Counted from the stretch's first letter, positions 2,227 to 32,000 are shown. The stretch: 32,000 bases of DNA from Candidatus Methylomirabilis oxygeniifera (GCA_000091165.1 FP565575.1:90001-122000), one strand, 5' to 3'. Notes: generated from the sequence alone by a model not told the origin. A program made the numbers and translations.

Positions 2227-2229
2227 GCC

Positions 2230-4195: not shown

Positions 4196-4232
4196 GAAAT
4201 AACAGGAGTTCTGGATCTGGGCGGGCTGTGCG

Positions 4233-4833: not shown

Positions 4834-4855
4834 TGTGGAACCTCCTGTATGCATA

Positions 4856-6069: not shown

Positions 6070-6288
6070 ACGGGGGACTTTCTGAGCAATACCCCATGCG
6101 GCGACGCCGCACCACGGCGGATGAAAATGCTGGCTGAGGGAGAGTGGTGCCCGAGATGTCGGGTTACGCTGCGCTAACCTGACCTACGGCTGCTCCCGCG
6201 AGGGTCCACCTGCCATGCTGTGCCGCCGACAGAGGCGACGGTGTGAGTTCAACTGCAATATTCTGGTTGAAAGTCTGAGAAAGCGCCC

Positions 6289-6480: not shown

Positions 6481-6643
6481 ACCTCGTCGGCGTTGAGTTC
6501 AGCGCTGTTCCACGTGTAGCGGAGGAGGTTTAATGGAACAGTTTGCAGCATCGGCGCTGCGCGATCGGTGCAGGCAGATCGTATTGGGGAGTGTAAGCAG
6601 GGAAGCACGTCAAGGTGACCACAACAGGAAAGGGGGAGGAGTA

Positions 6644-8449: not shown

Positions 8450-9342
8450 TGAGGCGAGGATTAGCGCTCCTATTCGCGACCATTACGGTCGGCCCTGCGG
8501 GTTGGCTCGCCTCATCGCCGCCCGCAGGGGCCGATCAAACGACCGCGATCTCGGCGCCGCTCAAGGTCTGCTCCGCGGCTGATGAGCTGCCCTACTCCAA
8601 CGAGAAGCTCGAGGGGTTTGAGAACCGGATCGCAGTCGTCATCGGGGAGGAGTTGCGACGTCCTATCGAGCATGTCTGGTGGAAGGATCCGCGGTTTTAC
8701 ATCCGTGATCTGCTCGAAGCTGGCGCCTGTGACATCACTATAGGGATCGATGCGGGAAATCCACGAGTATTGAGCAGTCAGCCGTACTACCGCTCCGGCT
8801 ATGTTTTCATCTACCGCAAGGACAAAGGGATATCGATCTCCGACTGGAACAGCCCAATCCTGAAGACCGCCACCATTGCGGTTGTTCCCGGAACCCCAGC
8901 AGAAACGATGTTGAAGCAGATCGATCGATATTACGAGCTTTTTAACTACCTGATGTCCCTTGTCGACTACAAATCACGGCGTAACCAGTATGTGAAGTAC
9001 GATCCTGCCCGGCTCGTACAGGAGGTCATCTCGGGACGAGCCGATGTGGCGGTCCTCTGGGGCCCTTCGGCCGCCAGGTATGTCAGGCAGTCCTCTATCC
9101 CGCTCGAGATGGTAATGATTCCTGATCGTGCGACCAGAACCGATGGTGAGCCGGTTCCTCATCATTATGATACATCGCTCGGCGTCAGAAAGGAGGATCA
9201 GGGGTTGCTCAACCAACTGAATGACGCCCTTGTTCGGCGCCGTGGCGAGATTGAGACGATCCTCAAGGCAGAAGGGATTCCGGCGTTGCCGCTGACGTCG
9301 AATCGCCTTACCGCCGCCGAGGGAGGAGTAGCGCAACGATGA
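8449..9342 (+). CDS. mxaJ: MxaJ, periplasmic solute-binding-like MDH accessory protein
   Basis: The ATG overlaps the mxaF TGA (TGATG). Signal peptide, then LKVCSAADELPYSNEKLEGFENRIA...YYRSGYVFIYRK, homologous to the N-terminal domain of the gene at 19814. Position is as in canonical mxaFJGI. Confidence 0.85.
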   Translation: MRRGLALLFATITVGPAGWLASSPPAGADQTTAISAPLKVCSAADELPYSNEKLEGFENRIAVVIGEELRRPIEHVWWKDPRFYIRDLLEAGACDITIGIDAGNPRVLSSQPYYRSGYVFIYRKDKGISISDWNSPILKTATIAVVPGTPAETMLKQIDRYYELFNYLMSLVDYKSRRNQYVKYDPARLVQEVISGRADVAVLWGPSAARYVRQSSIPLEMVMIPDRATRTDGEPVPHHYDTSLGVRKEDQGLLNQLNDALVRRRGEIETILKAEGIPALPLTSNRLTAAEGGVAQR

Positions 9343-9842
9343 GCCGCCTGATTTCGTCAGCTGTCTCGCGCATTCTCGTCGCGCTGATTCTGTTCAGCCT
9401 GACGGGGTGTTCAGGGACGACGGCCGTGGCTGTGGCAGAGCCGCCGATCATGCGAAACAATATTACCGGCGAGCCGCTCGAGTTCTCGGGACTCAATGAG
9501 ACTGAGACACCGGCGGTCAAACAATTCAAAGCCACCGGCAAGAATCCGTATAACACTGATCGTGAGGCCATCGCTAAGGGGGGCGCGGTATACCTGACCG
9601 CCTGCTCGGCCTGCCACGGTCACCATGCGGAGGGCAAAATTGCACCCGCTCTTATTGACGATTATTGGACCTACCCGATGAATACGACCGATATCGGGCT
9701 CTTTTCGAGTACCTACGCCGGGCTTCAAGGAATGATGGGTCCGTCCAAGGGGCGCCTGACACAGGATGAGATCCTTCAACTCATGGCCTGGATCAGGAGT
9801 AACTATAAAGGAGACCCAGCAAAGGCGGAATGGAACCATTGA
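9339..9842 (+). CDS. mxaG: Cytochrome c-L (MxaG), electron acceptor of MDH; predicted lipoprotein
   Basis: ATGA overlap with mxaJ, and GAGGGAGGAG SD. Single heme motif CSACHGHHAEGKIAPALIDDYWTYP, typical of cytochrome cL. N-terminus ILVALILFSLTGC has a lipobox-like L-T-G-C. Confidence 0.85.
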   Translation: MSRLISSAVSRILVALILFSLTGCSGTTAVAVAEPPIMRNNITGEPLEFSGLNETETPAVKQFKATGKNPYNTDREAIAKGGAVYLTACSACHGHHAEGKIAPALIDDYWTYPMNTTDIGLFSSTYAGLQGMMGPSKGRLTQDEILQLMAWIRSNYKGDPAKAEWNH

Positions 9843-17328: not shown

Positions 17329-17476
17329 ATCGGTGGTGGGGGCTATTGCATGAGGCAGGTGTAATTCCACACACACCCCGACGTTCCTCAAGCGGTATCC
17401 CGACATCGAATGGGCTGTAAGTGCTTGAATAACCTGATGATCGGAGCCTGCCGCAGCAGTTGGCATAGTCATTGCT
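17329..17476 (+). promoter_or_regulatory. Sigma-54 regulatory module, copy B, ending in TGGCAT-agtca-TTGCT (17461-17476)
   Basis: 148 bp, ~77% identical to 517-662 (the kinase upstream region). It has a near-consensus -24/-12 element and lies ~340 nt upstream of the xoxF ATG, immediately upstream of the second promoter block. Confidence 0.6.
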
Positions 17477-17500: not shown

Positions 17501-17694
17501 GTCTGCGTGATAATCCACAGGCCTACGGTCGAGGTGTGCGAAATTTCGCCCATTCACTCCATCGCCCAGCCACACGCACGGTTGTGCGCTCAACGTGTCG
17601 ATCGTCAGTTTCCCCAGCCGCGACAAGACTTTGCCTGCGCTCCTGCAACTGCATTGATGGCCATCGAGGGTGTGGCATCCCGCTTGCTGATACC
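17501..17694 (+). promoter_or_regulatory. xoxF proximal control region: palindrome GCGAAATTTCGC (17538-17549) plus sigma-54 promoter TGGCAT-cccgc-TTGCT (17673-17688)
   Basis: It is colinear with the mxaF upstream block 6289-6480 (see that feature). The -24/-12 element is identical to the mxaF one. The palindrome lies ~135 bp upstream of GG(-24). Confidence 0.65.
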
Positions 17695-17813
17695 CAGTCG
17701 CTTGTGACAGTCCGGATACTCGTCTCGCCTACTTTGGGGAAGGGAGTGGAAGGACAGATCGGGGCGATAGTTTTCAGTAAGCGGTTCAACACACAGAGGA
17801 GGGAGTGCAGATC

Positions 17814-19718
17814 ATGGGGAAGCCGTTATCCGGTTCTACGATGGCAGGCATGATCGCCGGCGCGCTCATGCTGGCTATCGCTTCTGGCAGTGCGCTCGCC
17901 AATGAAGAGATCGTTCGGGCGAGCAAAAATCCTGATCTGTGGCCCGCGCCGGGCCGGGATCTGGCCATGACGCGTCATAGCCCGCTCAAAGACATCAATA
18001 CCGCCAACGTCGGGAAGCTGCAGATGATGTGGTCGCAATCCACCGGTGCGTTGCGTGGCCATCAGGGTCAGCCGATCGTGGTCGAGGTGGCTGGAACGCC
18101 GATGATGTTTTTTGTGAGTCCCTGGCCGAATATCGTGCAGGCGTTGGACCTGTCCGATCCTGATCATCCGAAGCAGGTGTGGAACTACAAGAAGAAAACC
18201 GACCGTGATGAGTTGGCGGTGACTCGCGCGTGTTGCGATACGATTAACCGGGGCCTGAACTATGCCGACGGCAAGGTGGTCTTTCATACCCTCGACGGAT
18301 ATGTCATCGCGCTGGACGCCAAGACCGGCAAAGAGATTTGGACGGTCAAGCATGCCTGGTCGGATAAGGGTGAAACGATTACCGGCCCGACGCTGATCGC
18401 CGAGAATAAGGTCATCATCGGGTTCGGCGGCGACGAGTTCGCCGCGCGCGGCCGGGTGACCGCGTATGACCTGAAGACCGGCAAGCAGGTGTGGAACTGC
18501 CACAGCACCGGGTCCGACAAGGATGTGTGCCTGACCCCGGAGACCAACAAGGCCAATCCGCATTACGGGACGTACGGCAAGAACCTCGGCATGATCACCT
18601 ATCCCAATGACGAGTGGAAGATCGGCGGTGGCGCGCCCTGGGAATGGTTTACCTATGACCCGGAGTTGAGGCTCGTGTACGTGCCGACGGGCAACCCCGG
18701 GCACTGGAGTCCATCCTATCGGTGCGGTGAAACCGGCGCAAACCTGACTCACGAAAAGTGTAACCAATACGACCCCGAGTTGCGCAGCGGCAGATGGGAC
18801 AACAAGTGGGCGATGACGATCTTCGCCAGAAAGATCGATACCGGCGAGGCGGTATGGGCGTACCAGATGACCACCTTCGACCAGTGGGACTACGACGGCG
18901 TCAACGAACCCGTCCTGGTGGACATGAAGGTCGACGGCAAAATGCGCAAGACGCTGGTCCACTTCGACCGTAACGGGTTTGCCTATGTGCTTGACCGTGC
19001 CGATGGGACTCTGTTGCGCGCGCATAAGTTTTTCCCCCTCAACTGGGCCGAGAAGGTCGACCTCAAGACCGGCCGTCCGGTGAAGATCAAGGAGCATTCG
19101 CCCTTCGCTCGTCATGTCAGCACGCAGGTCTGCCCGTCTTCGCTTGGCGCCAAGAACCAACAACCGATTGCGATCGATCCCAAAGAACCGCACATCGCCT
19201 ATGTGGCGACCAACTGGTGGTGCATGGAATACGAGCCGCAAGAGCGCACCCACACCCAGCAGGGCATGCTCTATGTCTTTGCGAACGTCTTCACGTATCC
19301 GATCGAGAAGGGTGTCGCGAGCAAGGTGCAGAAGTTCAACGTGCTGACCGGCGAGACCGAGTGGGCTATTCCGGATGCCTATCCGGACTGGGGCGGCATG
19401 CTGACGACCGATGGCGACCTACTGTTCTACGGCAGCCTGAGCGGAGATTTTCGCGCGGTCGATCGGAAGTCCGGCAAGGTCCTGTGGAGCCGTAAACTGG
19501 GCTCCGGCATCATCGGCAACCCGATCACGTACAAGATCAAGGGCAAGCAGTACGTGTCGGTATTGGCCGGTATCGGCGGCTGGATCGGTCTGCCGGTGAC
19601 GGCCGAGCTCGACTTTGACGACAAGTATGGAGCCATCGGCGCCACCGCTATGGCCAAGCTGACCGGGCTCGATAAGATTCCGCAGGGTGGCGTGCTCTAC
19701 ACCTTCCGTATCGATTGA
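17814..19718 (+). CDS. xoxF: PQQ-dependent methanol dehydrogenase, lanthanide-type (XoxF), copy 1
   Basis: GGAGGG SD lies 10 nt before ATG 17814. The GTG at 17805 is too close to the SD. Signal peptide ...ASGSALA-NEE, vicinal Cys TRACCDTINRG. Active-site FDQWDYDGVNE (D-Y-D at 18888-18896) carries the additional Asp diagnostic of Ln-dependent XoxF. No small-subunit gene follows. Confidence 0.93.
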   Translation: MGKPLSGSTMAGMIAGALMLAIASGSALANEEIVRASKNPDLWPAPGRDLAMTRHSPLKDINTANVGKLQMMWSQSTGALRGHQGQPIVVEVAGTPMMFFVSPWPNIVQALDLSDPDHPKQVWNYKKKTDRDELAVTRACCDTINRGLNYADGKVVFHTLDGYVIALDAKTGKEIWTVKHAWSDKGETITGPTLIAENKVIIGFGGDEFAARGRVTAYDLKTGKQVWNCHSTGSDKDVCLTPETNKANPHYGTYGKNLGMITYPNDEWKIGGGAPWEWFTYDPELRLVYVPTGNPGHWSPSYRCGETGANLTHEKCNQYDPELRSGRWDNKWAMTIFARKIDTGEAVWAYQMTTFDQWDYDGVNEPVLVDMKVDGKMRKTLVHFDRNGFAYVLDRADGTLLRAHKFFPLNWAEKVDLKTGRPVKIKEHSPFARHVSTQVCPSSLGAKNQQPIAIDPKEPHIAYVATNWWCMEYEPQERTHTQQGMLYVFANVFTYPIEKGVASKVQKFNVLTGETEWAIPDAYPDWGGMLTTDGDLLFYGSLSGDFRAVDRKSGKVLWSRKLGSGIIGNPITYKIKGKQYVSVLAGIGGWIGLPVTAELDFDDKYGAIGATAMAKLTGLDKIPQGGVLYTFRID

Positions 19719-19813
19719 TCGTGTCACGATCCCGAATGCGCTGTCGATCTGATGGTTGCCGGCGGGTGGCATCAGTCCACCCGCCGGTGCCGTCGTATGT
19801 GAGGTCGATTCGT

Positions 19814-21532
19814 ATGTCGTTGTTGAAGCAGTGCGGAACCGTACTCCTCGCCTGCGCGCTCAGCGTCACGGTCGCGCCTGCGTTTGTAATCGCCGACATC
19901 GGGCATGATGGGGGCGCGCCCAGCGTCAACGTTGCGCCTGCCTCTGCAACCGAGGGCAGCGCGTTGCTGCGGGTGTGCGCCGATCCCGGAAATATGCCGC
20001 TGTCGAATAATAAGGGAGAAGGCTTCCAGAACAAGATCGCAGAGATCCTCGCGCAGGCGATGGGCGCGCAGCTTACGTATTACTACCGACCGTATCTGGA
20101 GCGAGGCCTCACCAGCCAAACCGTGGATGCCGATCGGTGTGACATGCTGATGGATATACCGTCGGGCGAGGAACGTCTGCTGACCACCAAGCCGGTCTAT
20201 CGCAGTACCTTTGTGCTGGTCTACCGCAACGACAAAGGATACGCCTTCAAGGGTCTGGACGACCCCAGATTACTCAACGACCTCAAGGTCGGCGTCTTCC
20301 AGCATTCCGCGGCGCGGCAGGTATTGCAGGAGCGCGGCCTCGCACGCGGCAACACCATTGTGCATGCCGTCAGCTACGATACCGATGTCAACCCCGAACG
20401 GCAGCCGTCACGGCAGATCCGACAGGTGATCGACGGCCGACTGGATGTAGCTGCCATCTGGGGGCCGATGGCCGGCTGGTACAAGGCCGTCGAAGGCGCG
20501 CCGCTGACGATCCTGCCAATGAACCTCATGGATGATGCCACGCCATTGGAGTTTGAGTTGAGCGTGGGCATGCGGAGGGGCGCCGAGGAGTTGAAGACCA
20601 GGATCGAACAGGCACTGGTGCGCGAGCAGGCGCGTATCCGCCGGACATTGGAGGAGTACGGGGTGCCGCTGGTCGAATGCGCGCGGTGTCTGGTGTCGGG
20701 CACGCTGCCTTCGCATGGGCCTTACACGCCGCCCGCGCCCGTTACGGCAACGTCCCCACCGGCGGCGGCGCCCGACATGACGCAGGTGGCCTTGCAGACC
20801 GACGCCGCGCTGGCCGGCGGCGGGACGCTCGATGAGGAGTTGCACTACGCAATCCTGGCCAGTCAGCCCAAGCGGGCCGACTACCTGATCGCGCGTGGTG
20901 CCGATGTTAACGGCCGGGATGCGCAGAACCAGACGCCGCTGATGACGGCGGTCATGCACGGTCACGAACCGGTAGTCGCTCTCTTGCTGAACCGCAAGGC
21001 CGATCCGAACAGGGCGGACAACGACGGCTGGACCGCCCTGATGCGCGCCGTCCAGCGCGACGACCCTACCATGGTGCGCCTGCTGGCCGCACATGGCGCC
21101 GACCCCGAAGCGATCAATCGGAACGGCATGAGCGCGCTCACCATGGCGGCGCTGCACGGCAAGAGCCTAGCGGCAGCCGCCCTGCTGGAAAGCGGGGCAA
21201 AGGTTGACAGTGCGATCGGGACGGCGCGCTACACGCCGCTGATGATTTCGGTGTTCTCCGGCACGCAGCCTGTCGCACAGGCACTGTTGCGATATGGCGC
21301 GCAGGTCAACGCCCGTAACGGCGGCGGTCTGACGGCGTTGATGATCGCCGCGGCCTCTAATCGGCCAGAGATGGTTGCGCTGTTGCTCGGCGCAGGCGCG
21401 GATGCCGCACTCAAGGACGCAGAGGGGAGGACCGCGCTGGCGCTGGCGCGAGAGCGCGATGCCGCCACTGTCGTCAGCCTGCTCACGGGAAGGTCGGCCG
21501 TAGGCAGTGCGGCGAAGCCTGCTGCGCAGTAG
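19814..21532 (+). CDS. xoxJ: XoxJ/MxaJ-like periplasmic binding-fold domain fused to a C-terminal ankyrin-repeat domain
   Basis: ATG 19814 has GAGG 9 nt upstream. Signal peptide MSLLKQCGTVLLACALSVTVAPA. LLRVCADPGNMPLSNNKGEGFQNKIA...VYRSTFVLVYRND aligns with MxaJ (8449-9342). A Pro/Ala linker (~20700-20777) follows. Then come ~6 ankyrin repeats (~20831-21486), e.g. QTPLMTAVMHGHEPVVALLLNRKADPN and GLTALMIAAASNRPEMVALLLGAGADAA. Confidence 0.85.
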   Translation: MSLLKQCGTVLLACALSVTVAPAFVIADIGHDGGAPSVNVAPASATEGSALLRVCADPGNMPLSNNKGEGFQNKIAEILAQAMGAQLTYYYRPYLERGLTSQTVDADRCDMLMDIPSGEERLLTTKPVYRSTFVLVYRNDKGYAFKGLDDPRLLNDLKVGVFQHSAARQVLQERGLARGNTIVHAVSYDTDVNPERQPSRQIRQVIDGRLDVAAIWGPMAGWYKAVEGAPLTILPMNLMDDATPLEFELSVGMRRGAEELKTRIEQALVREQARIRRTLEEYGVPLVECARCLVSGTLPSHGPYTPPAPVTATSPPAAAPDMTQVALQTDAALAGGGTLDEELHYAILASQPKRADYLIARGADVNGRDAQNQTPLMTAVMHGHEPVVALLLNRKADPNRADNDGWTALMRAVQRDDPTMVRLLAAHGADPEAINRNGMSALTMAALHGKSLAAAALLESGAKVDSAIGTARYTPLMISVFSGTQPVAQALLRYGAQVNARNGGGLTALMIAAASNRPEMVALLLGAGADAALKDAEGRTALALARERDAATVVSLLTGRSAVGSAAKPAAQ

Positions 21533-21732: not shown

Positions 21733-22332
21733 GTGACGTTTCGCAATGTTGGCAGCATCGCCGTAATGAGCATCGCCTTCCTCTCCGCCTGCGGGACCGC
21801 CGGCACAACGGCGCAACCGGTCGCCGCGCCGGATCGGACGCAGCAGCCTGCTCCGCCCACGCCGGCCGAACCTGCGGCGGTCGGATCGACATCGGCGGTA
21901 CAGACGATCACCGCCCCTGCCGTGCCCGCCGGTCTCGACGGTCGGCCCATCGACCGCACCAATGCCAGCACGCCAGGCTCACTCAAGAATCCGTATGCCA
22001 ATGCGACTGAAGAGATCATCGCGCAGGGCCGTGAACGGTACCTGGCCTATGGCTGCAACGGCTGCCACGGCGGCGGAGGCGGGGGCGGTATGGGGCCACC
22101 GTTGTCCAACGAGGTCTGGGTCTACGGCAGCGATGACGACACGCTGTTCCGGTTGACGGCGATCGGGAGCGTCGAGTTGCAAAAGCTTGGGTACGCGCGT
22201 AAGAGCCGCGAGGGAGTCGTCGCTCCGATGTTGCCCTATGGTCAACTGATCAAAACTGAGGATGAACTGTGGAAGATGATCGCCTTTATCCGCACCACCT
22301 ATCGTGGCGATCCGTCGCGCAAGAACTGGTGA
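21733..22332 (+). CDS. xoxG: XoxG-type c-type cytochrome (methanol-metabolism related), predicted lipoprotein with a long Pro/Ala tether
   Basis: GTG start with AGGAAGGAG 7 nt upstream. Lipobox FLSAC. A ~75-aa low-complexity linker (PAPPTPAEPAA...). The heme motif CNGCHGGGGGGGMGPPL, with a glycine run after CxxCH, is what I recall as characteristic of XoxG-family cytochromes. Confidence 0.85.
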   Translation: MTFRNVGSIAVMSIAFLSACGTAGTTAQPVAAPDRTQQPAPPTPAEPAAVGSTSAVQTITAPAVPAGLDGRPIDRTNASTPGSLKNPYANATEEIIAQGRERYLAYGCNGCHGGGGGGGMGPPLSNEVWVYGSDDDTLFRLTAIGSVELQKLGYARKSREGVVAPMLPYGQLIKTEDELWKMIAFIRTTYRGDPSRKNW

Positions 22333-22337
22333 TCCTC

Positions 22338-23297
22338 ATGAAGAAGACGGCGCTGTGTGTTGTCGTGTTCGCTTATCTGGTTACGCGAGGAGCTTCGGCA
22401 TCGGCCGAGTCTCGGGCGTATGTGACCAACGAAGCGTCCAACGATCTGTCCGTCATCGATACTGCCTCCCGACGGGTGGTCGCCACCATCAAGGTTGGGG
22501 ATCGACCTCGAGGCGTAGCCGTGTCCCCGGATGGCAGCCGCGTCTATATCGCGAACGCGAACTCCAACAACCTGACGGTCATCGATACGGCTACCCTCAC
22601 GGTGAAGGCGACGGTTCCGGCTGGGATCGAACCGGAGGGCGATCCGGAAGGGATCGCCGTGACCCCGGATGGAAAGCAACTCTACGTCGTCAACGAAAAT
22701 CCCGGCACCGTCTCCGTGATCGATACGGCCACCCATCAGCTCGTTGCGACAGTAACGGTAGGGGTGGAGCCGGAAACGGTTGCCGTGAGTCCCGATGGGC
22801 GATGGGTCTACGTCACCAATGAAACCTCCCACGATGTCCACGTCATCGACACTTCCGCCGATCGTGTCATCGCCAAGATCAAGGTGGGCGCCAACCCCCG
22901 TGGGGTGAGTTTTACGCCCGATGGGAAGCGGGCCTATGTGGGATGCGAGCGCGACGGGACGGTCTCCGTGATCGACACGGCTGCCCGCCGGGTGATCGCC
23001 ACCATCCCGGTAGGGGAGCGTCCGGTGGGGACGGTCGTGAGCCACGACGGGAAAAAGGTCTATGTGGCCCACGGTCGGTCGTATGAGGTGTGGGTCCTGG
23101 ATACGAGGACCCATCAGGTGCTGACCAAGATCCCGACGCAGGAGCGGTCATGGTGGGTCGCGTTGACCCCGGATGGAAGGGAGCTGTACGTCACGGTCCA
23201 CGGTGGCGGCCGCGTGGCGGTCATCGACACCACTCACGACCGGCTGCTTACAACCATACCGGCAGGGACGAAGCCCTGGGGCGTGGCGGTCAGGTAA
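22338..23297 (+). CDS. Secreted seven-bladed YVTN beta-propeller protein, paralogue 2
   Basis: ATG lies 5 nt after the xoxG stop. Signal peptide MKKTALCVVVFAYLVTRGASASA. Repeats include YVTNEASNDLSVIDTASRRVVATIKVGDRPRGVAVSPDGSRVYIAN and similar. Confidence 0.8.
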   Translation: MKKTALCVVVFAYLVTRGASASAESRAYVTNEASNDLSVIDTASRRVVATIKVGDRPRGVAVSPDGSRVYIANANSNNLTVIDTATLTVKATVPAGIEPEGDPEGIAVTPDGKQLYVVNENPGTVSVIDTATHQLVATVTVGVEPETVAVSPDGRWVYVTNETSHDVHVIDTSADRVIAKIKVGANPRGVSFTPDGKRAYVGCERDGTVSVIDTAARRVIATIPVGERPVGTVVSHDGKKVYVAHGRSYEVWVLDTRTHQVLTKIPTQERSWWVALTPDGRELYVTVHGGGRVAVIDTTHDRLLTTIPAGTKPWGVAVR

Positions 23298-23328
23298 ACC
23301 ACCGGTCCGCATGTATGGAGGGTGCACA

Positions 23329-25674
23329 ATGAGAGTGAGGGTGCTCTGGTACGTGGCGATAGGGTTGATCTGGCTCGTGGCTGGGATGATGCCGCGCGCG
23401 TGGGCGGAAACGGATCAGTCGGAACCGGGGGAAAGTCCCCTCAAGGCCTTTGAGCTCCCGGCGGTGGAGGTGATCGAGCATACCCCTCTGTCGGCTCTCG
23501 GTATTCCCATCGGGAAATACCCGGGGAACGTGCAGGAGATCACGTCTGAGGAGATCGAGAGTCAGAACCCGCTTGATATCTCGGAAATGTTCTACCGGAA
23601 CCTCAGCTCGGTCAATATCAATGCTGCTCAGAACAACCCTTGGCAGAATGATGTGACCTACCGTGGTTTTCTCGCCTCGCCCCTGACCGGCAGCCCCATC
23701 GGGCTGTCCGTGTATCTGGACGGCATGCGCTTCAACGACGGATTCGGGGAAACGATGAACTGGGACCTGACTCCCCAGTCCGCCATCGCGGAAATCGACG
23801 TGATTCCCGGTTCCAACCCTGTCTTCGGTTTGAATACTCTCGGTGGCGCGCTTAACATCCGCACCAAGCGCGGCTTCGATTTGCAGGGTACGGAAGTCGA
23901 AGCGTCTGGAGGATCCTTCGGACGCTGGGCTGTGGAGGCGGAGCACGGCGCTGTGCACGGTCCGTTTGACTTGTATCTGACATTCAACACCCTGGACGAA
24001 AGCGGCTGGCGCGAGCACTCGCCGAGTGAGTTGCGACAATTATTCAGTAGAATCGGGTGGAAAACGGAGCGCACTGACCTCAACCTCAACTACATCTGGG
24101 CCGACAACGATCTCATCGGCAACGGCTTCGTCCCGGAGAGTACACTGGCGAGAGACCGTGATGCCGTCCATACCTTCCCTGATCGGACCGGGAATCGTAT
24201 GCACCTGCTCAACCTGCGCGGGAGTCGTCGGATCACGGATGCCCTGCTGCTCTCTGGGAACGGGTTCTATCGCTACTACAAGCGTAAGACCCTGAATGGG
24301 GATGCCGAGGTCGGCTGTGTGGATGACGCCACCGGGGCGGGGGTCGTCGACGCCGGCGGCCGTCCGCTGCACCTTGGGCTGTGCGAGGGTTCGGCCGTCG
24401 GATTCTTTGATGAGGATGGCAATCCGCTGGCCGGAGCACTGGAGCGCGAAGCCGAGGGTGAGGACCGGACGACGAGAACCCGCACCCATGACTTTGGCGG
24501 AACGTTCCAACTCTCGCATAGCGGCGCCATCATGGGCCGTACCAACCGGCTGACGGTTGGATTTGCCTTCGATCGCCACCAAAGCCATTATAACCAGCGC
24601 GAGGCCGAATCCGAGCTGGTGCCGGACGGCAACAGTGTGGGCACGGAACGCGAGGGACCCTTCGAGACGGAGGTCAACGTCGGCACCCGGCAGGATAATG
24701 CCGGTTTCTATATTACCAACACCTTCGATCTCGCCGAGCGTCTGGCGCTGACGTTGTCCGGGCGGTATCAGCATGTGGACATCAACATACGCGACCGGTC
24801 TGGCGAGAACGACGATCTTAACGGCCACCATACATTCGAGCGCTTCAGTCCTGCCGTAGGATTGACGTTTCAAGCGCTGAAGAACGCCACGCTCTTCTTC
24901 TCCTATAGCGAGGGCTTTCGCGCCCCCACTCCGGCGGAACTGACGTGCGCCGATGAGAACGATCCGTGCAATCTGCCGAATGCGTTTGTCGCCGATCCGC
25001 CGCTCAACAAGGTCGTCGCCCGCACGTACGAGTTCGGCGCGCGCGGCCGTCTGCCGATCGGAAATGGGGTGCGGTGGAACGCCGGCTTCTTCCGCACCGA
25101 CTTAAGCAACGACATCCTGTTTACCGTCGTTGAAACCGGCGGGGCCGGCTTTTTCCAGAATGTTGACGCGACGCGCCGCCAGGGCGTCGAGGTCGGTGTA
25201 CAGGGTCGGTGGAAGCGATTGAAATACTTTGGAAACTACGCGTACGTTGATGCCACCTACCAGTCCGACGTGACGCTTGCGAGCGTGACGGACCCCGGCG
25301 GCGTGCGGGTCAAGGATGGCGATGTGATTCCCGGCATCCCAAAGCACAATGCCAAGGTTGGGGCAGAGTATGCCCTGCTGGACAATCTCTGGATCGGCGG
25401 CAACGTGATCGCCGTGTCCGGCAACTATCTCCGCGGCGACGACGGCAACAACCAAAGCAAGACGGATGCCTACGCGATACTGAATCTTCACGCCCGCTAC
25501 GTGCCGATCAAGAACCTGGAGATCTGGACGCGCATCGACAACGTGACCGATACCGACTACGAGACGGCAGGCACGCTCAATTTTAATGCCTTCGGCAGCC
25601 CCATCGCCGTTGAGCGATTCGTCGCCCCGGGATCGCCCGTTGCCGGCTGGGTCGGTGTCAAGTTACGCTTCTGA
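23329..25674 (+). CDS. TonB-dependent outer-membrane receptor (full length), last gene of the xoxF operon
   Basis: GGAGGG SD, ATG 31 nt after the YVTN stop. Signal peptide ...MMPRAWA-ET, TonB-box-like ELPAVEVIE, plug domain (VQEITSEEIESQNPLDISEMF...TYRGF). A long beta-barrel ends in VGVKLRF*. Confidence 0.9.
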   Translation: MRVRVLWYVAIGLIWLVAGMMPRAWAETDQSEPGESPLKAFELPAVEVIEHTPLSALGIPIGKYPGNVQEITSEEIESQNPLDISEMFYRNLSSVNINAAQNNPWQNDVTYRGFLASPLTGSPIGLSVYLDGMRFNDGFGETMNWDLTPQSAIAEIDVIPGSNPVFGLNTLGGALNIRTKRGFDLQGTEVEASGGSFGRWAVEAEHGAVHGPFDLYLTFNTLDESGWREHSPSELRQLFSRIGWKTERTDLNLNYIWADNDLIGNGFVPESTLARDRDAVHTFPDRTGNRMHLLNLRGSRRITDALLLSGNGFYRYYKRKTLNGDAEVGCVDDATGAGVVDAGGRPLHLGLCEGSAVGFFDEDGNPLAGALEREAEGEDRTTRTRTHDFGGTFQLSHSGAIMGRTNRLTVGFAFDRHQSHYNQREAESELVPDGNSVGTEREGPFETEVNVGTRQDNAGFYITNTFDLAERLALTLSGRYQHVDINIRDRSGENDDLNGHHTFERFSPAVGLTFQALKNATLFFSYSEGFRAPTPAELTCADENDPCNLPNAFVADPPLNKVVARTYEFGARGRLPIGNGVRWNAGFFRTDLSNDILFTVVETGGAGFFQNVDATRRQGVEVGVQGRWKRLKYFGNYAYVDATYQSDVTLASVTDPGGVRVKDGDVIPGIPKHNAKVGAEYALLDNLWIGGNVIAVSGNYLRGDDGNNQSKTDAYAILNLHARYVPIKNLEIWTRIDNVTDTDYETAGTLNFNAFGSPIAVERFVAPGSPVAGWVGVKLRF

Positions 25675-25688
25675 CGCCTGACATTCCA

Positions 25689-25844
25689 TCGATCGCGGAT
25701 GGGGTCCTGCCGCGTGCTGCGGAACTCGTGGATAGTTCGAATCGCCGTTCTCCTCCGGTCCAAGGCTTCCCTGCGTAGAACGGCGATGTTGTATGGTGCG
25801 CTCAGACAGGTCCTCGCACACTCCAGGACCCCATCCGCGATCGA
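25689..25844. repeat. 156-bp element with 21-bp perfect terminal inverted repeats and a nested 11-bp inverted repeat (MITE-like or large RNA hairpin)
   Basis: TCGATCGCGGATGGGGTCCTG (25689-25709) is the exact reverse complement of CAGGACCCCATCCGCGATCGA (25824-25844). The inner pair is ATCGCCGTTCT (25741-25751) and AGAACGGCGAT (25777-25787). It starts 15 nt after the receptor stop. Confidence 0.55.
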
Positions 25845-25871
25845 GCAATGACGATACTTGGGGGCTTATAG

Positions 25872-25931
25872 CAATTCGTCAATCCCACCCAGCCGATCAA
25901 TGTTCCGGTCGGTGCCGGTTACCGATTCTAA
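25872..25931 (+). pseudogene. 20-codon 3' remnant of a TonB-dependent receptor gene
   Basis: QFVNPTQPINVPVGAGYRF* compares with the end of the receptor at 1-372 (RFLNPAQPINVLVGASYRF*). The DNA of 25878-25931 matches 319-372 at roughly 43 of 54 positions by hand count. An in-frame stop lies immediately upstream at 25869-25871. Confidence 0.55.
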
Positions 25932-25998
25932 GATTACTGAGGCATGCTTAAGGAAAAAACTCTTCTCTTGTTTTGGGCGTATCCGTTATAATTAGTGC

Positions 25999-26976
25999 AT
26001 GACTCCAAAGGATGCCTTTACGCTTGGACGTCAAGGAGGCCATGCCGAGGTCGACCGGGTCCACGATGAGGTCCATTCTGTCATGACATTGCGGGTTGGA
26101 TCGCAGGCCGGACCGCGTTCGCTGGGCCGATTTCTTCTAAGCTCTACCGGTTTTCACCTGATCTTCGCTTGGATTATCATCAGCGTTGGACTGCCCAAGG
26201 TCCCATCGGCTCCGAAGCCTCTTGTTGTCACCATTATTGGAAGTGACAGCGCTGAGGCGCCTGCCGCGTCGGGACGACCTGATCGCACCCACACTCGACA
26301 GCCGGCCGCGCCGGGGCCGGCGACGCAAGCCGTCAATTCGAAAGTGACAGCCCAACCTCGCGTCTCACCACCGTCGCCTGATCTCACGGCTCAGGCGACG
26401 GAATCAACGGCGTCGGATGATCGGGTTGCCGAGCCTAAGGCTGTCGGCGTGTCTGCCGGTGGATCACATGCGGCGAGCATGGGCGCAGCAACGGCTTTAG
26501 CGATGGGTGGCGCGTCGAAGGGACCTGTTCTGCTCGGGTCTGACGGAGATGGCGAAGTCGGCTCAGGCCCGGCCGGTCGAGGCGGAGCGGGCCGCCTTGA
26601 TACGGCGTTGATTGCACCGTCGACACCATCGGTCACGGTCGGCTCCGCTCAGGGCGCGGGAGGGGGCGGAACGGGCTGGTCAAGCAATGGAGGCGCCGGA
26701 GGGCGGTCATCTGCGCCGAACTACGGAATCAATCCGCTTCCCAAGTACCCTCTCTTGGCCCGGGAAAAAGGGTACGAAGGAACGGTCTACCTGCGGGTTC
26801 TGGTCCGCGCGGATGGTCGTGTAGAGCGGCTGGCTGTCGATCGATCCTCCGGATATGAGATCCTGGACCGAGCGGCGGTAGACTCGGTCAAAGAGTGGGC
26901 GTTCTTTCCTGCCAAAAAGGGTGGGAAGTCGGTACAAAGCTGGGTGTTGCTACCGGTAAAGTTTGCGCTTAACTGA
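25999..26976 (+). CDS. tonB: TonB-family energy transducer
   Basis: N-terminal TM FHLIFAWIIISVGL, then a long Pro/Ala/Gly-rich spacer. C-terminal TonB_C-like domain: PKYPLLAREKGYEGTVYLRVLVRADGRVERLAVDRSSGYEILDRAAVDSVKEWAFFPAKKGG. Start is uncertain (ATG 25999 or ATG 26083). No exbBD in the window. Confidence 0.8.
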   Translation: MTPKDAFTLGRQGGHAEVDRVHDEVHSVMTLRVGSQAGPRSLGRFLLSSTGFHLIFAWIIISVGLPKVPSAPKPLVVTIIGSDSAEAPAASGRPDRTHTRQPAAPGPATQAVNSKVTAQPRVSPPSPDLTAQATESTASDDRVAEPKAVGVSAGGSHAASMGAATALAMGGASKGPVLLGSDGDGEVGSGPAGRGGAGRLDTALIAPSTPSVTVGSAQGAGGGGTGWSSNGGAGGRSSAPNYGINPLPKYPLLAREKGYEGTVYLRVLVRADGRVERLAVDRSSGYEILDRAAVDSVKEWAFFPAKKGGKSVQSWVLLPVKFALN

Positions 26977-27071
26977 GGCGGGAAGCCATCAGCCTTCAGC
27001 GGTCAGCTCTTTTGATCTGGCCCCTGCTTTGTCTAAGACTGACTGCTGATTACTTTTTTCTGAGGTAGAGT

Positions 27072-28307
27072 GTGACCGCTTTTTCGCAGACCTCGAGATC
27101 GCTCTCCACAATTGTAGTCCTTCTTTTCATCGTCTCTTTGCTCAACCTATTCGTTTCTCCTGCATGGGGGGGTAAGCCGGTCAGTAAGCCGTTCTATGAC
27201 GAAAACGGACAGGTTATCCGGGAAGAGGTCGATAGCACCGGTTCAGGGCGGATCGATACATGGGTCACCTATCAGGATGGCGTCCCGATTCTGCAGGCCC
27301 TGGACACGAATAAGGACAGTAAACCTGATACCTGGCACCACCTGTCTGCAGATCGTCGGGTAGAGAGGACGGAAAAAGACGGCGACGGCGATGGCAAGTC
27401 CGATATCTGGATTAGATACCACCAGGGAAGTCCTATCAAGGCGGAACAGGATCTGAATATTGATGGGCGAGCCGATCGGTTCATCTTCTACGAAAAGGGG
27501 AAGGCGGTCCGGGCTGAGGAATCGCTGAAACGTAATGGAAAGATCACCCTGTGGTCGTTTTATGACGATGCCGGCGTGCTCGTCCGGGATGAGGAGGACG
27601 CAAAAGGAGTCGGTCGGCCGACGCTTTTTTCGTATTATCAGGAGGGGAAGCTCTCGAGGCGCGAAGAGGACACGAAAGGATCAGGACGGATCGACCGCTG
27701 GTCGTATTACGATAAGGATGAGCGTCTGATGAAGCGTGAGGCCGCTCGAAAAGGATCGGGACGGCCGGACACGTGGGCCTACTATGAGAACGGACAGATC
27801 GTCAAGCAAGAGGAAGATACGCTGGGCCAAGGTCGGCCGAACGTCGCCTACTTCTTCCAGGCAGGCGCTCTGTTCCGGCGAGAAGAGGATACGCAGGGGA
27901 CCGGCCGCCCGGACCTGATCGACTGGTACGAGAACGACAAGCCGGTCAAACGGCAGCAGGATACCAGACGGCAGGGGAAGATAGATCTGGTGACCCACCT
28001 TCTGAATGGAGCTATCCAACGACAAGAGGTTGATACCAAATACGAGGGACGGTACGACCTGGTTCGCTTCTTTGAGAATGGGCGCCTTGCCAGAGAAGAG
28101 TACGACACCAACGCAGACGGCCGGTCGGACGTCTGGGTTGCCTACAATGAGGCCGGCGAAAAGGTATTTCAGGAAGAGGATACCGATTACACCGGCCGAG
28201 CTCAAGTGCGGTTTCGTTTTACCGGGGGAAAAGTTGTGAAGAAGGAAGTGGTACGCGAAGAGCGAGCGGACGGCCCACCGCGCCTGCTGATACCCAAGAT
28301 CCCATAA
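27072..28307 (+). CDS. Secreted tandem-repeat protein: ~14 x 24-residue units with acidic D-x-x-G-x-G-R-x-D loops (MORN-variant-like beta-hairpin repeats)
   Basis: GTG start with GAGG 5 nt upstream. Signal peptide ...LNLFVSPAWG-G. Repeat array ~27231-28250 with consensus EEDT.G.GRPD.W.YYENG..... Examples: EEDTKGSGRIDRWSYYDKDERLMKR, EAARKGSGRPDTWAYYENGQIVKQ, EEDTQGTGRPDLIDWYENDKPVKR, EKDGDGDGKSDIWIRYHQGSPIKA. Confidence 0.75.
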   Translation: MTAFSQTSRSLSTIVVLLFIVSLLNLFVSPAWGGKPVSKPFYDENGQVIREEVDSTGSGRIDTWVTYQDGVPILQALDTNKDSKPDTWHHLSADRRVERTEKDGDGDGKSDIWIRYHQGSPIKAEQDLNIDGRADRFIFYEKGKAVRAEESLKRNGKITLWSFYDDAGVLVRDEEDAKGVGRPTLFSYYQEGKLSRREEDTKGSGRIDRWSYYDKDERLMKREAARKGSGRPDTWAYYENGQIVKQEEDTLGQGRPNVAYFFQAGALFRREEDTQGTGRPDLIDWYENDKPVKRQQDTRRQGKIDLVTHLLNGAIQRQEVDTKYEGRYDLVRFFENGRLAREEYDTNADGRSDVWVAYNEAGEKVFQEEDTDYTGRAQVRFRFTGGKVVKKEVVREERADGPPRLLIPKIP

Positions 28308-28350
28308 TGCTCCGCTTCACAAAACAGCGCGCATTCGATGGAAAAATTGC

Positions 28351-28380
28351 TTGACAGGTCGCGAGCGAGTAAGCTATATC
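28351..28380 (+). promoter_or_regulatory. Putative sigma-70 promoter for the FG-GAP protein gene
   Basis: TTGACA (28351-28356), 18 nt, TATATC (28375-28380). This makes the ORF-track TTG start at 28351 implausible. Confidence 0.45.
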
Positions 28381-28488
28381 TCCACCGCATTAAACGGCGT
28401 CTCTACGCGGGTCGACTCACCGGAGCGCGAGAGACGCGCATGGCCTCTCCCAGTTACTCGTGAGTTGGCGCCGATTGCGTTTAAGGGT

Positions 28489-30582
28489 ATGAAGGGTTCC
28501 ACTCATTGTGTCACGAATACAAAAATGGGAAGAGTCGCCCCTTCCTGTGGCTCGCGCGGGTTGGCCGCTTTTTCTCTTGCTGTCGCTCTTTGCATTCCTC
28601 TGATTGCTTCTCAAGCCCGCGCTCTGGAACCGGCCTTTGGCCAAGCCGCTGAGGAGGCCGCCGCTAAGCTGGCCGAAGCCTTCCCGACCGTTCAAGGATC
28701 GGTGACCGGAGTCGAGAGGGATCGGATCCTGATCGACTTGGGCGCCAAACAGGTGTATCAGGGGATGGAATTACAGGTCTACCGAGAAGGAGATGAGGTT
28801 AAACATCCGGTGACCGGCGAAGTTCTTGGAAGGCGAGATAAAAGGCTGGGTCTCCTCAGGGTCGTTGAGGTGAAAGAGAGGTTCTCGGAGGCCGCCATTG
28901 TCTCCAGAGAGGAAGGGGCCACCATGAGGGCCAAGGACCTAGTTCGGGTCAGTTCGGACCGGCTGGTGGTTGGCCTCCCTCTTATCGATGCCGGCGGAGT
29001 GAAGGAAGCGAATGTCCATTCGGTCACGAAAGATCTGGCTATTGCGCTAGCCAAGACGGGCCACTTTATGGTGATTGAGGATCCTCTCCTTAAGGCAGCC
29101 CTGACCGGGGAGCATACGTCGCGCATGGAATCGCTTGGCGATCCTTCAACGCTAAAGCTACTGTCAGAGAAGACGCACGTTCAGTTTCTCATCCTCGGTA
29201 AACTCAGCCCTGGCTCCCAGGGATTGTTTTTAAACATGCAGGTGATATCGGTTTTTACCGGAGCGCCGTTGACTGTTGCAAGCGTCGAGGTGAAGGAGCG
29301 AGGGCCGATGGTCGTGGCCGCCCCATCGCCGTCGTCGAGGCCGGCCCCTCGGTCCGGCTTAGAACCAACCCCCTCCGCCGCGCCGAGACCCTCTTTTATT
29401 CAAACTGAGCGCCAGATCGCAGAGCCTCCAAGGATCGGCGAGCAACCGAAAGGGTCCCGTTCGTTTCCAGGTACGGGTGAGAACGTGACGACGCGTCCTG
29501 CCGAGAAGGCGCAAGAGTCTGTAACATTCGAGTTGTCCGATCCGCTTCTTGCACTGGTAGCGGGAGATCTGGATGGGGATCAGCGGCCTGAGATCGTTGG
29601 GATCACGTCCTCGGAGGTGATCGCCTATCGGTGGCAGAATCAACGATTAGTATCGATTGCCAGAGCCAGCAGCCCTCGGCTTGTTCGTCACCTGCATCTT
29701 GACGTCGGAGACGTGAACGGACGCGGTCACGTCCAGATTGTCGTGACGGCCCTATCCGGTGGGCGAAACGAGCTTCAGTCGTTTATTCTGGAACTTCAAG
29801 GGGGCCGGCTCGTTCGGGTCGCCGAGAAGTTGGGCTATTTTCTTCGTGTAGTGATGGGTCCCGGCATTGAGACGCCAATCCTGGCCGGGCAGCGGATGGG
29901 AGAACTCACTGCATTTGAGAGGCCGATCGTTCGGCTGACGTGGAATGGCGAGCGATACGTCGAAGGGCAGCCGCTTACGCTTCCGGCCCAGGTGAAGAAT
30001 CTCTACGAATTTACGCCGATCAAGGCCGTGGGTGACCAGATATCAGAGGTTGCGGTCATCAGTGAGAAGCGAGTGAAGATCTACGGGAGCGAGAGCAAGC
30101 CGTCATGGGAAGCCAAAGATGATCTGGGCGACGTCGATCACCTCGCCTTTTCTCATATTCCCACGTACCGGGCTCTTCTGGCGAAGGAGGGGCTAAATTC
30201 CGGGACCCCGATTACACCAGAAGAGCATGCAGTTGAGCAGATCCTGCCGCGGCGAGTCCTGGTGGAGGCGTCGCCTCAATGGGGCAATGCCACGACAGAG
30301 CTTCTGACCTTTACGAATCCGAAAAAGATTGGGGCGCTTCGGACTGAGTCATCCTTCCCTCCGAGTCAGGTCGTGGCGTTTGACCGTCAGGAAGGAACCT
30401 TCGCGCGAGGGTGGGAGACGATCCCCCTTGAAGGGAGGGTACGCGACGTAGCGTTGGTCGATCTGAACGGCGCCGGCAGGAAAGATCTCATTGTACTATC
30501 GGCGATTAAAGAAAAGGGTCTGATCGCTTATATGCAGGATGGAACGCGTGGCATTATCAGTGTATTTTCCTTCATCCGCTAG
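28489..30582 (+). CDS. Large secreted protein: N-terminal FlgT/LpoB/CsgG-like domains, Pro/Ser linker, C-terminal FG-GAP (integrin-alpha/VCBS-like) beta-propeller repeats
   Basis: Start is uncertain (ATG 28489 or ATG 28525; neither has a good SD). Signal peptide MGRVAPSCGSRGLAAFSLAVALCIPLIASQARA. FG-GAP/Ca-loop-like motifs: LVAGDLDGDQRPEIVGI, HLDVGDVNGRGHVQIVV, VALVDLNGAGRKDLIVL. Confidence 0.75.
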   Translation: MKGSTHCVTNTKMGRVAPSCGSRGLAAFSLAVALCIPLIASQARALEPAFGQAAEEAAAKLAEAFPTVQGSVTGVERDRILIDLGAKQVYQGMELQVYREGDEVKHPVTGEVLGRRDKRLGLLRVVEVKERFSEAAIVSREEGATMRAKDLVRVSSDRLVVGLPLIDAGGVKEANVHSVTKDLAIALAKTGHFMVIEDPLLKAALTGEHTSRMESLGDPSTLKLLSEKTHVQFLILGKLSPGSQGLFLNMQVISVFTGAPLTVASVEVKERGPMVVAAPSPSSRPAPRSGLEPTPSAAPRPSFIQTERQIAEPPRIGEQPKGSRSFPGTGENVTTRPAEKAQESVTFELSDPLLALVAGDLDGDQRPEIVGITSSEVIAYRWQNQRLVSIARASSPRLVRHLHLDVGDVNGRGHVQIVVTALSGGRNELQSFILELQGGRLVRVAEKLGYFLRVVMGPGIETPILAGQRMGELTAFERPIVRLTWNGERYVEGQPLTLPAQVKNLYEFTPIKAVGDQISEVAVISEKRVKIYGSESKPSWEAKDDLGDVDHLAFSHIPTYRALLAKEGLNSGTPITPEEHAVEQILPRRVLVEASPQWGNATTELLTFTNPKKIGALRTESSFPPSQVVAFDRQEGTFARGWETIPLEGRVRDVALVDLNGAGRKDLIVLSAIKEKGLIAYMQDGTRGIISVFSFIR

Positions 30583-30803: not shown

Positions 30804-32000
30804 ATGAGTGTGAAACGTCGTATGTCACTGATCGGAGGTCTGCTGGTTTTGGCCGGCAGCCTTGCGATATCGGCGCCTATCGTCTCAGCTAATGATGATG
30901 TGTTGAAGCTTCAAAAAGATGATGGCCAGTGGGTAGTCCAGAGCAAGAACTATTCAGGGACCCGCTACAGCACCCTGAACCAGATTACGCCCGAAAACGC
31001 AAAAAATCTCAAAGTCGCCTGGTCGTTCTCCTTGGGGACGCTAAACGGCCAGCAGGGCGGCCCGCTGGTTGTCGGCGACACAATGTATGCCCATAGCTCA
31101 TACGCTGGAGGCCCTACAGGTCACTCGCACAACATCTTTGCGCTCGACCTATCCAAGGAAGGAGCGCCGATCAAGTGGCGGTATAATGCGAAGTATGACC
31201 AAAAGGCACCTCCCGTCGCCTGCTGCGACTTAGTTCATAAGGGCCTACAGTATGCGAACGGCAAGATCCTGTACCAGACGCTTGATGGAATGGTGATCGC
31301 TCTTGATGCCAAGACCGGCAAGGAGCTCTGGAAGACTCGGAACGCCGACCCCTCCAAGGGTGAGACGAGCACTGCCGCCGGCCTGGTGATTAAAGATAAG
31401 TATATCGCCGGTGTCGCCGGGGGCGAGTTCGGGGTGCGCGGCTGGGTGGCGGCCTACGACATCAATACCGGCAAGCAGGTCTGGAAGGCCCGCAGCATGG
31501 GGCCCGATGAAGAGATCAAGCTTGCCCCTGATTTCAATGCCGCCAACCCGCATTACGGACGATTCGGCGAGGGGACCAAGAGTTGGCCCGGCGAGATGTG
31601 GAAACAGGGCGGCGGTACGACCTGGGGCTATTATGCGTACGATCCTGAGCTGAACCTGCTTTACTACGGTAGCGGCAACCCAGGGACCTGGAATCCCGCC
31701 CCTCGGAAAGGCGGCGATAACAAGTGGTCGATGACTATCTGGGCTCGCAATCCCGACACTGGGGTGGCCAAGTGGGCCTATCAGATGACCCCGTGGGATA
31801 ACTGGGACTACGATGGGATCGATGAATCCGTTTTGACCGAGCAGACATTCGGTGGCAAGAAGCGGAAGGTGCTCACGCACTTTGACCGCAATGGGTTCGT
31901 CTACACACTGGATCGAGCGGATGGAACCTTGCTGGCCGCTGATGCCTTCGTCTATGTCAACTGGGCGAAGGGGATCGACCTGAAGACGGGGCGGCCGATC
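30804..32000 (+). CDS. xoxF: PQQ-dependent methanol dehydrogenase, lanthanide-type (XoxF), copy 2; 3' end outside the window
   Basis: Not in the ORF track because it is open-ended. AGAGGGAGG SD before ATG 30804, and the frame is open for 399 codons to nt 32000. MSVKRRMSLIGGLLVLAGSLAISAPIVSA-NDD signal peptide, PVACCDLVHKG. Active-site PWDNWDYDGIDE (D-Y-D at 31806-31814). Confidence 0.92.
   Translation, partial: MSVKRRMSLIGGLLVLAGSLAISAPIVSANDDVLKLQKDDGQWVVQSKNYSGTRYSTLNQITPENAKNLKVAWSFSLGTLNGQQGGPLVVGDTMYAHSSYAGGPTGHSHNIFALDLSKEGAPIKWRYNAKYDQKAPPVACCDLVHKGLQYANGKILYQTLDGMVIALDAKTGKELWKTRNADPSKGETSTAAGLVIKDKYIAGVAGGEFGVRGWVAAYDINTGKQVWKARSMGPDEEIKLAPDFNAANPHYGRFGEGTKSWPGEMWKQGGGTTWGYYAYDPELNLLYYGSGNPGTWNPAPRKGGDNKWSMTIWARNPDTGVAKWAYQMTPWDNWDYDGIDESVLTEQTFGGKKRKVLTHFDRNGFVYTLDRADGTLLAADAFVYVNWAKGIDLKTGRPI

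Follow-up and report, generated by a model that had tools for sequence, protein, structure and literature searches.

Among the closest described parallels to the genes considered here is the lut/lan system of Methylorubrum extorquens, in which a receptor (LutH) encoded near XoxF genes is accompanied by an ATP-binding cassette (ABC) importer (LutAEF) and by accessory periplasmic proteins whose role was at first obscure, lanmodulin among them. A block of three genes from Candidatus Methylomirabilis oxygeniifera has a similar setting and a different content. It lies in a stretch of 32,000 nucleotides (GCA_000091165.1, FP565575.1:90001-122000; "the window" from here on), between the TonB-dependent receptor of the xoxF1 methanol dehydrogenase operon (TBDR-A) and a second xoxF (xoxF2), and encodes a dedicated TonB and two unrelated proteins, the repeat protein REP and the propeller protein FGGAP, instead of an ABC importer, substrate-binding LutA and lanmodulin. 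A preliminary description of this DNA, made from the sequence alone, had recognised the three same-strand genes with an export signal or membrane anchor, their place between a xoxF-operon receptor and the second xoxF, and the lack of a match to lut or lanmodulin components. All of this is borne out: the open reading frames (ORFs) lie at the coordinates that it gave, each specifies one N-terminal hydrophobic segment, and neither an ABC importer nor a lanmodulin is found. In relatives the position of the receptor is occupied by a different one, TBDR-B.

Tol-Pal offers a second likeness: there too the gene for a TonB/TolA-type protein, anchored in the inner membrane, comes before that for a periplasmic protein in which an alpha/beta domain of the TolB-N/LpoB fold is joined to a beta-propeller. 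The resemblance to TolB is architectural only: the block carries no TolQRB or Pal signatures, the propeller of FGGAP is of the FG-GAP type with about seven blades where TolB has six, and FGGAP adds a FlgT_C/TsaP-like barrel and a long Pro-rich linker. Taken one at a time, its domains recall TsaP, FlgT, FlgO and LpoB, with matches that fall below the family cutoffs; their order and the attached propeller are a new combination, and LysM and lipobox are both lacking. REP shares 22-25-residue beta-hairpin repeats with the MORN-variant/YwqK family (PF07661), DUF6802, Lsa25.6 and Rhs/YD proteins (JGI labels its relatives "antitoxin YwqK"), but scores below the curated cutoffs for MORN_2/YwqK and Lsa25.6 and has its hairpins linked by 9-residue loops derived from DxDxDG. 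We know of no description of a recurrent partnership with TonB, such as REP-type proteins have, for the YwqK, DUF6802, Lsa25.6 or Rhs/YD families. With lanmodulin REP has in common secretion, a lanthanide-related neighbourhood and about four Asp-rich DxD/NxDG loops; it differs in being all-beta and four times larger, in matching no EF-hand family of Pfam, and in having neither Pro at loop position 2 nor Glu at position 12.

What might such a block do? The reading put forward here, held with about as much doubt as conviction, is that TonB, REP and FGGAP are components of a TonB-dependent machine for import across the outer membrane, specific to this lineage, which the phylum NC10 has kept physically coupled to xoxF2. 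REP and FGGAP are most likely two uncharacterised accessory families of a TonB-dependent import system.

The case begins with gene order. FGGAP orthologues (54-94% identity) were collected at 27 loci, 22 of them non-redundant, from a scan of species-representative genomes, a metagenome scan and exact-protein look-ups; REP orthologues were recovered from the neighbouring DNA and the metagenome scan, a word-index search having returned distant matches only. Among those non-redundant loci whose flanks reach far enough to tell, REP lies beside FGGAP in 20 of 20 and TonB in 18 of 18, a TonB-dependent receptor is near in 12 of 12, and xoxF2 follows downstream in 16 of 16. The NC10 order, (receptor)-TonB-REP-FGGAP-(X)-xoxF2-xoxJ, is invariant and persists down to 54% identity in FGGAP and ~40% in TonB. 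It is retained around a toxin-antitoxin insertion (locus L001), in a clade at 55-59% FGGAP identity that has a gene X (552-594 residues) between FGGAP and xoxF2, and in the window, where a ~22-kb mxa and xoxF1 segment stands between a kinase/regulator pair and TonB. The preliminary description had allowed that this might equally be an unrelated envelope locus; co-localisation with xoxF2 and a receptor, without exception, argues against that for NC10. The check on neighbourhood conservation that it had proposed comes out positive throughout the 22 NC10 loci and negative for xoxF outside them (48 paralogue loci and L086/L093, taken up below). Two observations on the collection itself may be added. 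The 91% identical block on DATMXF010000214.1 (L005), labelled "Patescibacteria group bacterium", probably sits on a mis-binned Methylomirabilis contig. Metagenome-assembled genomes with the xoxF2-linked block (L017, L018, L024) also encode shorter FGGAP paralogues (47-57% identity) that comprise the N-terminal barrel and LpoB-like module only; in L018 a paralogue of this kind adjoins two X-like genes.

By domain, anchor and motifs alike, the sequence of TonB is that of a bona fide energy transducer. TonB_C (PF03544) scores 81.6 bits against a Pfam cutoff of 24.6, and TIGR01352 scores 66.7 bits against an NCBIfam cutoff of 27.1; the SxxxH motif of the anchor and the YP motif of the C-terminal domain are kept in 20 of 20 orthologues.

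REP begins with a signal-like hydrophobic segment (residues 6-34; signal peptide ~1-33), the only such segment that it has, continues with 15 units of 24-25 residues and ends in a conserved tail, PPRLLxPKxP. The repetition exists in the protein only; the gene has no tandem repeat at the DNA level. The AlphaFold2 model (predicted local distance difference test score, pLDDT, 89.6) is all-beta, with successive hairpins linked through 9-residue loops. Of the "acidic 24-mer repeat" in the preliminary description the repeat stands and the adjective does not, mature REP being mildly acidic (isoelectric point 5.5, net charge -7, D+E 19% vs K+R 17.5%); similarly, Asp/Gly loops of the Ca2+-binding type are present in two of the proteins, as it had said, without being abundant (4 of 14 loops in REP; three, one of them near-canonical, in FGGAP). 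In REP the motif D-x-[DN]-x-[DN]-G-x-x-D occurs in repeats 2, 3, 4 and 13, each time with an acidic EE(D) cluster ahead of it. Across 21 distinct orthologues (66-91% identical) the canonical loop is retained without exception in repeats 3 and 13, in 19 of 21 in repeat 4 and in 16 of 21 in repeat 2; the remaining ten loops are never canonical and are no less conserved, although Lys, Arg, Gln or Thr stands where a ligand would be. Conservation is 0.78-0.89 in every one of the repeats. All of the block's proteins are evidently under purifying selection.

Three family assignments for REP were tried and rejected: lanmodulin/EF-hand protein (all-beta model, no EF-hand match, a hydrophobic residue at loop position 12), MORN_2/YwqK (24.5 bits against a gathering threshold of 29.6, hence a resemblance of fold and period only) and the Lsa25.6 adhesin (NF050087; 65.7 bits against 150, over residues 311-368 only). 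The best Foldseek matches were Rhs/teneurin and OspA sheets, at low TM-scores (0.14-0.32), and a search of PDB sequences returned nothing useful.

Might REP nevertheless be a periplasmic lanthanide chaperone that binds Ln3+ at its Asp/Gly loops in the manner of lanmodulin and passes it to XoxF2 with the assistance of FGGAP? The protein is secreted and encoded between the TonB system and xoxF2, its four canonical loops are conserved together with their acidic clusters, and a lanmodulin-type EF-hand is missing from the vicinity (no EF-hand family at E<=0.01 in nine proteins, REP included, scanned against Pfam from 17.8-32 kb); a 2026 preprint has other small cargo proteins for lanthanides, predicted to be periplasmic, next to lanthanide receptors (10.64898/2026.07.10.737718). 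We think the proposal doubtful, for several reasons. Ten of the 14 loops have lost the ligand pattern and are conserved all the same, which suggests a structural rather than a metal-storage role, and where repeat proteins carry DxDxDG loops, these mostly serve as structural Ca2+ sites; REP is only weakly acidic, and neither an EF-hand nor a Glu at loop position 12 is to be found in it; the full-length proteins most closely related to it are encoded with ExbBD-TonB, away from any xoxF. Direct binding of Ln3+ by the four canonical loops is possible, and is made less likely by the degeneracy of most of the loops, the lack of EF-hands and the TonB-only contexts of relatives elsewhere. In the reading preferred here, REP would be an elongated periplasmic beta-hairpin repeat protein, metal-stabilised or metal-binding at three or four conserved DxDxDG loops. 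Between the two roles in the service of XoxF that the preliminary description had entertained, envelope scaffolding, or import accessory, appears to fit better than metal capture.

TBDR-A goes with the xoxF1-xoxJ-cytochrome c-YVTN operon, and the first of the receptors at L001 matches it with 93% identity; TBDR-B, which adjoins TonB in the relatives, is only ~31% identical to it. The gap between TBDR-A and TonB in the window (25675-25998, 325 bp) contains, besides a TATAAT-like box at ~25985, a 29-nt inverted repeat (25689-25717 / 25816-25844, 90% complementary, 98 nt apart). It may represent the scar of a deletion, or else a terminator.

Could the block serve instead to scavenge pyrroloquinoline quinone (PQQ) for XoxF2, through receptor and TonB, with REP and FGGAP as accessories? 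Ca. M. oxyfera is without pqq genes and yet has PQQ enzymes (PMC6094997), and TonB-dependent import of PQQ is widespread (PMC12124388). PqqU ranks second among the NCBIfam matches of both receptor types, and the YVTN and TBDR-A pair of the window (22269-25674) parallels yncE-pqqU of E. coli (L089, NC_000913.3 1520963-1524368); a comparable LutB/LutH-like pair adjoins xoxF1 in Methylocella (PMC9291206). The PqqU model, however, scores 127-168 bits against a cutoff of 1200, and validated lanthanide receptors are likewise mis-annotated as PqqU. The seven residues that contact PQQ in E. coli PqqU (Q84, Y99, Q121, K274, R304, R365 and R536; PMC12124388) are represented by 0 of 7 in TBDR-A and in nine TBDR-B sequences, at 21-27% identity; on this ground and on score, PqqU membership of both receptors was rejected. 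PQQ import stays a candidate because Methylomirabilis does not synthesise PQQ, and is in our estimate an unlikely one.

In relatives (loci L004, L014, L015, L071-L074) genes for a sensor kinase and a sigma-54 regulator lie directly upstream of TBDR-B-TonB-REP-FGGAP-xoxF2, and the kinase/regulator pair at the left of the window (757-3606) probably represents the block's ancestral regulators, since it is this pair that adjoins the block in relatives. In 7 of 11 loci TBDR-B is preceded, at a distance of 72-150 bp, by a sigma-54-type site, CGGCAYAYGTGTTGCA. The window has no convincing shared sigma-54 or sigma-70 promoter before TonB, REP, FGGAP or xoxF2. Sigma-54-type -24/-12 sites with one mismatch each do occur elsewhere in it: one precedes mxaF by 74 bp (6459-6474) and two precede xoxF1, by 344 bp (17461-17476) and by 132 bp (17673-17688). 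The mxaF site and the nearer xoxF1 site consist of the same 16-mer, TGGCATCCCGCTTGCT, at 6459 and 17673.

FGGAP combines several kinds of domain. Its C-terminal half qualifies as an FG-GAP/VCBS propeller by a repeat match above threshold (FG-GAP_3, 44.8 bits against 26.9, detected in 49 of 49 family members) and by its predicted fold (AlphaFold2 pLDDT 75 overall, mostly >85 in the propeller, residues 390-743). Upstream of this, FlgT_C is matched at residues 115-200 in 42 of 49 members, and the best sequence-profile match of this barrel in the PDB is the secretin-associated TsaP (3jc8, E 1e-5); residues 205-314 match LpoB (4q6z) in Foldseek at a TM-score of 0.69 with 21% identity, and TolB (7mx5) is a weak full-length match (0.33). 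Domains of these types are found in TsaP, FlgT, FlgO, CsgG, LpoB and TolB, all of which dock on complexes of the outer membrane. FGGAP was rejected as an LpoB (TIGR02722, 16.2 bits against 110.55; PF13036 weak in 2 of 49 members; no lipobox read) and as a TolB (no TolB_N or PD40 match in Pfam, the same low TM-score).

Relatives outside the orthologue group tell how far the association with xoxF2 extends. FGGAP paralogues were found at 48 loci (23-57% identity) in Rokubacteria, other NC10, Nitrospirota, Elusimicrobiota and others, and at none of the 48 is there a gene for XoxF, TonB, REP or a receptor in the neighbourhood. What adjoins FGGAP-family genes instead are genes of three families of 435-630 residues with signal peptides and a C-terminal aromatic beta-signal: family X (ending VEFRAQF), directly downstream of FGGAP in the 55-59% sister clade; family Y (570-630 residues, secreted, ending RVRFSF), directly upstream of the paralogue in 21 of the 48 loci; and family Z (ending NYGF). 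Their profile matches are weak, to Alginate_exp, the Autotransporter beta-domain and CopB, and beyond these barrel hits nothing was matched in Pfam, NCBIfam or PDB sequences; the weak matches, together with the terminal beta-signal, are the reason for taking all three as outer-membrane barrels, probably undescribed ones.

The REP family is large (2473 cluster representatives at E<=1e-3, 33 at E<=1e-30), and its relatives keep different company. The closest full-length collinear homologue beyond NC10 (404 residues, 38% identity, E 2e-89; L086/L093) is the last gene of an ExbB-ExbD-TonB_2-REP operon, with a 4-bp overlap, and has no xoxF, receptor or FGGAP within 10 kb. This operon (L093:6096-12930, the same as L086; GCA_040961615.1, not among the NC10 loci recovered) specifies a Gly-zipper lipoprotein, a REP-like protein (P0002), VWA, ExbB, ExbD, TonB_2 and full-length REP, that is, two REP-type genes. 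Elsewhere 8 bp separate a full-length relative (P0173, 37% identity, L090) from the TonB_2 gene upstream of it; P0172 has REP repeats fused to a TonB_2 C-domain, and could be a chimera; and the ORF calls P0259 and P0197 run on, past a TonB-like C-domain, into a signal peptide with REP repeats. Because relatives of both families occur with no xoxF nearby, REP and FGGAP are better regarded as general envelope parts recruited to xoxF2 than as XoxF-specific inventions.

One can take this generality further and picture a Tol-Pal-like envelope scaffold, with a TolA-like TonB, a TolB-like FGGAP and the repeat protein as strut, that has no tie to XoxF2, its linkage merely inherited; the succession of a TonB-type protein and an alpha/beta-plus-propeller protein does resemble tolA-tolB, Foldseek does return TolB and LpoB, both families are widespread apart from xoxF, and the window offers no shared promoter, but the block has stayed beside xoxF2 through much divergence and local insertion, it is accompanied by a receptor gene and a two-component/sigma-54 pair, tolQ, tolR and pal are not nearby, and the block's FGGAP appears to be a specialised copy, given that NC10 and related paralogues occupy other loci, so that we rate this, too, as improbable. 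A more ambitious reading, for which we would claim equally little, makes REP a widespread undescribed class of periplasmic TonB/TolA partners and FGGAP a partner class of outer-membrane barrels, combined in NC10 as a lanmodulin-independent route in which the DxDxDG loops of REP pass lanthanide from receptor to XoxF2.

In the import machine that we prefer, TonB would energise the receptor, and REP would be the periplasmic partner of that dedicated TonB. FGGAP would dock beneath the outer-membrane barrel (TBDR-B or, in one clade, protein X) by way of its TsaP/FlgT-like and LpoB/TolB-N-like domains, its propeller serving as an interaction platform, and REP and FGGAP together would help to bring the imported cargo to periplasmic XoxF2. 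That cargo would most likely be a lanthanide ion or a lanthanide chelate: it is favoured because those Methylomirabilis species in which XoxF2 is the only methanol dehydrogenase are lanthanide-dependent (PMC6094997) and because the receptors have kept none of the PQQ residues of PqqU.

Several things weigh against this proposal. The window holds no periplasmic binding protein or ABC importer to go with such a machine, and TBDR-B is absent from it, TBDR-A occupying its place beside TonB. No MotA_ExbB or ExbD match was found among the ORFs of the window that were scanned, three upstream ORFs being outside that scan; genes for ExbB and ExbD beside TonB are common, not obligatory, and are often encoded elsewhere. 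The physical associations of the block's proteins are ones that we infer from sequence, and common descent could account for some of the synteny, since the xoxF2-linked examples all come from one phylum. Homology between families X and Y is unsupported (hhalign probability 6%), and their barrel nature is itself a prediction. Finally, the distant REP-like proteins P0014, P0011, P0319 and P0322 have no TonB neighbour.

The window as a whole is a methanol dehydrogenase cluster of the NC10/Methylomirabilis type (Table 1). Three methanol dehydrogenases in a single cluster are known for Ca. M. oxyfera (PMC6094997), and a review figure tags part of that cluster merely as a "TonB-like uptake system" (PMC11845868); in the literature searched there is no mention of FG-GAP with xoxF, of DAMO_0129-0133 or of the genes in between. 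The gene-poor stretch at 3607-6532 looks like the remnant of a mobile insertion where the mxa/xoxF1 segment joins the ancestral regulator genes. Within it a VapBC-like pair (4233-4854, - strand) sits between the copies, 1041 bp apart and 90% identical, of a 63-nt direct repeat (4012-4074 / 5053-5115); there is also an integrase-like fragment (~5163-5393). In the xoxF1 operon the periplasmic binding protein, of the XoxJ/MoxJ type (605 residues), has ~6-7 ankyrin repeats fused to it; xoxJ after xoxF2 in relatives encodes ~295 residues and no ankyrin. Two mechanically called ORF starts, at 23173 and 28351, are probably too far upstream: the TBDR-A ORF as called shares 125 bp with the YVTN gene, and the signal peptide of the receptor begins at M52.

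Table 1. Coordinates of the genes, domains and loops discussed (window positions, except where a locus is named)
Feature	Position	Strand	Basis or remark
Sensor histidine kinase	757-2226	+	NCBIfam
Sigma-54-dependent response regulator	2230-3606	+	NCBIfam
Degraded, gene-poor stretch between sigma-54 regulator and mxaF	3607-6532		VapBC-like pair on - strand
mxaF	6533-8449	+	DYA motif
mxaJ, mxaG	8446-9842	+	
mxa accessory genes	up to 17309	+	
xoxF1	17805-19718	+	
xoxJ fused to ankyrin repeats	19715-21532	+	
Cytochrome c	21733-22332	+	
YVTN propeller	22269-23297	+	
TonB-dependent receptor TBDR-A	23173-25674 (likely start ~23326)	+	Pfam Plug and barrel
TonB, 325 residues	25999-26976	+	Pfam, NCBIfam
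TonB membrane anchor	residues 45-65 = 26131-26193	+	single N-terminal hydrophobic segment; carries SxxxH (SSTGFH)
TonB linker, periplasmic	between anchor and TonB_C		Pro/Ala/Gly/Ser-rich
TonB_C domain	residues 248-324 = 26740-26970	+	YP motif (KYP at ~residue 250)
REP, 411 residues	27072-28307	+	repeat register, AlphaFold2
REP canonical DxD/NxDGxxD loop, repeat 2	residues 78-86 = 27303-27329	+	
REP canonical loop, repeat 3	residues 103-111 = 27378-27404	+	
REP canonical loop, repeat 4	residues 127-135 = 27450-27476	+	
REP canonical loop, repeat 13	residues 345-353 = 28104-28130	+	
FGGAP, 743 residues from TTG at 28351	28351-30582 (probable start 28489, M47, or 28525, M59)	+	Pfam, AlphaFold2
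FGGAP signal peptide or anchor	residues 67-92		sole N-terminal hydrophobic segment, after M47/M59
FGGAP FlgT_C/TsaP-like beta-barrel	residues 115-200 = 28693-28950	+	
FGGAP LpoB/TolB-N-like alpha/beta domain	residues 205-314 = 28963-29292	+	
FGGAP disordered Pro-rich linker	residues 318-387		AlphaFold2
FGGAP FG-GAP propeller, ~7 blades	residues 390-743 = 29518-30579	+	AlphaFold2, Pfam
xoxF2, 5' part, continuing past the window edge	30804-32000	+	PQQ methanol/ethanol-family dehydrogenase, DYD motif of the lanthanide (XoxF) type
Family X	L015:12209-13993, L004:12379-14109		
Family Y	L067:8161-9873 and 20 other loci		
Family Z	L065:12220-13533		

The delivery of lanthanides and of PQQ to periplasmic XoxF is understood in only a few Proteobacteria. 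The nitrite-dependent methanotrophs of NC10 are without the known carriers, and some of them depend wholly on XoxF2; the TonB-REP-FGGAP block is a candidate for the missing route. The pairings of REP with TonB and of FGGAP with putative barrels that recur in other lineages point, beyond methanol oxidation, to unrecognised accessories of outer-membrane transport.

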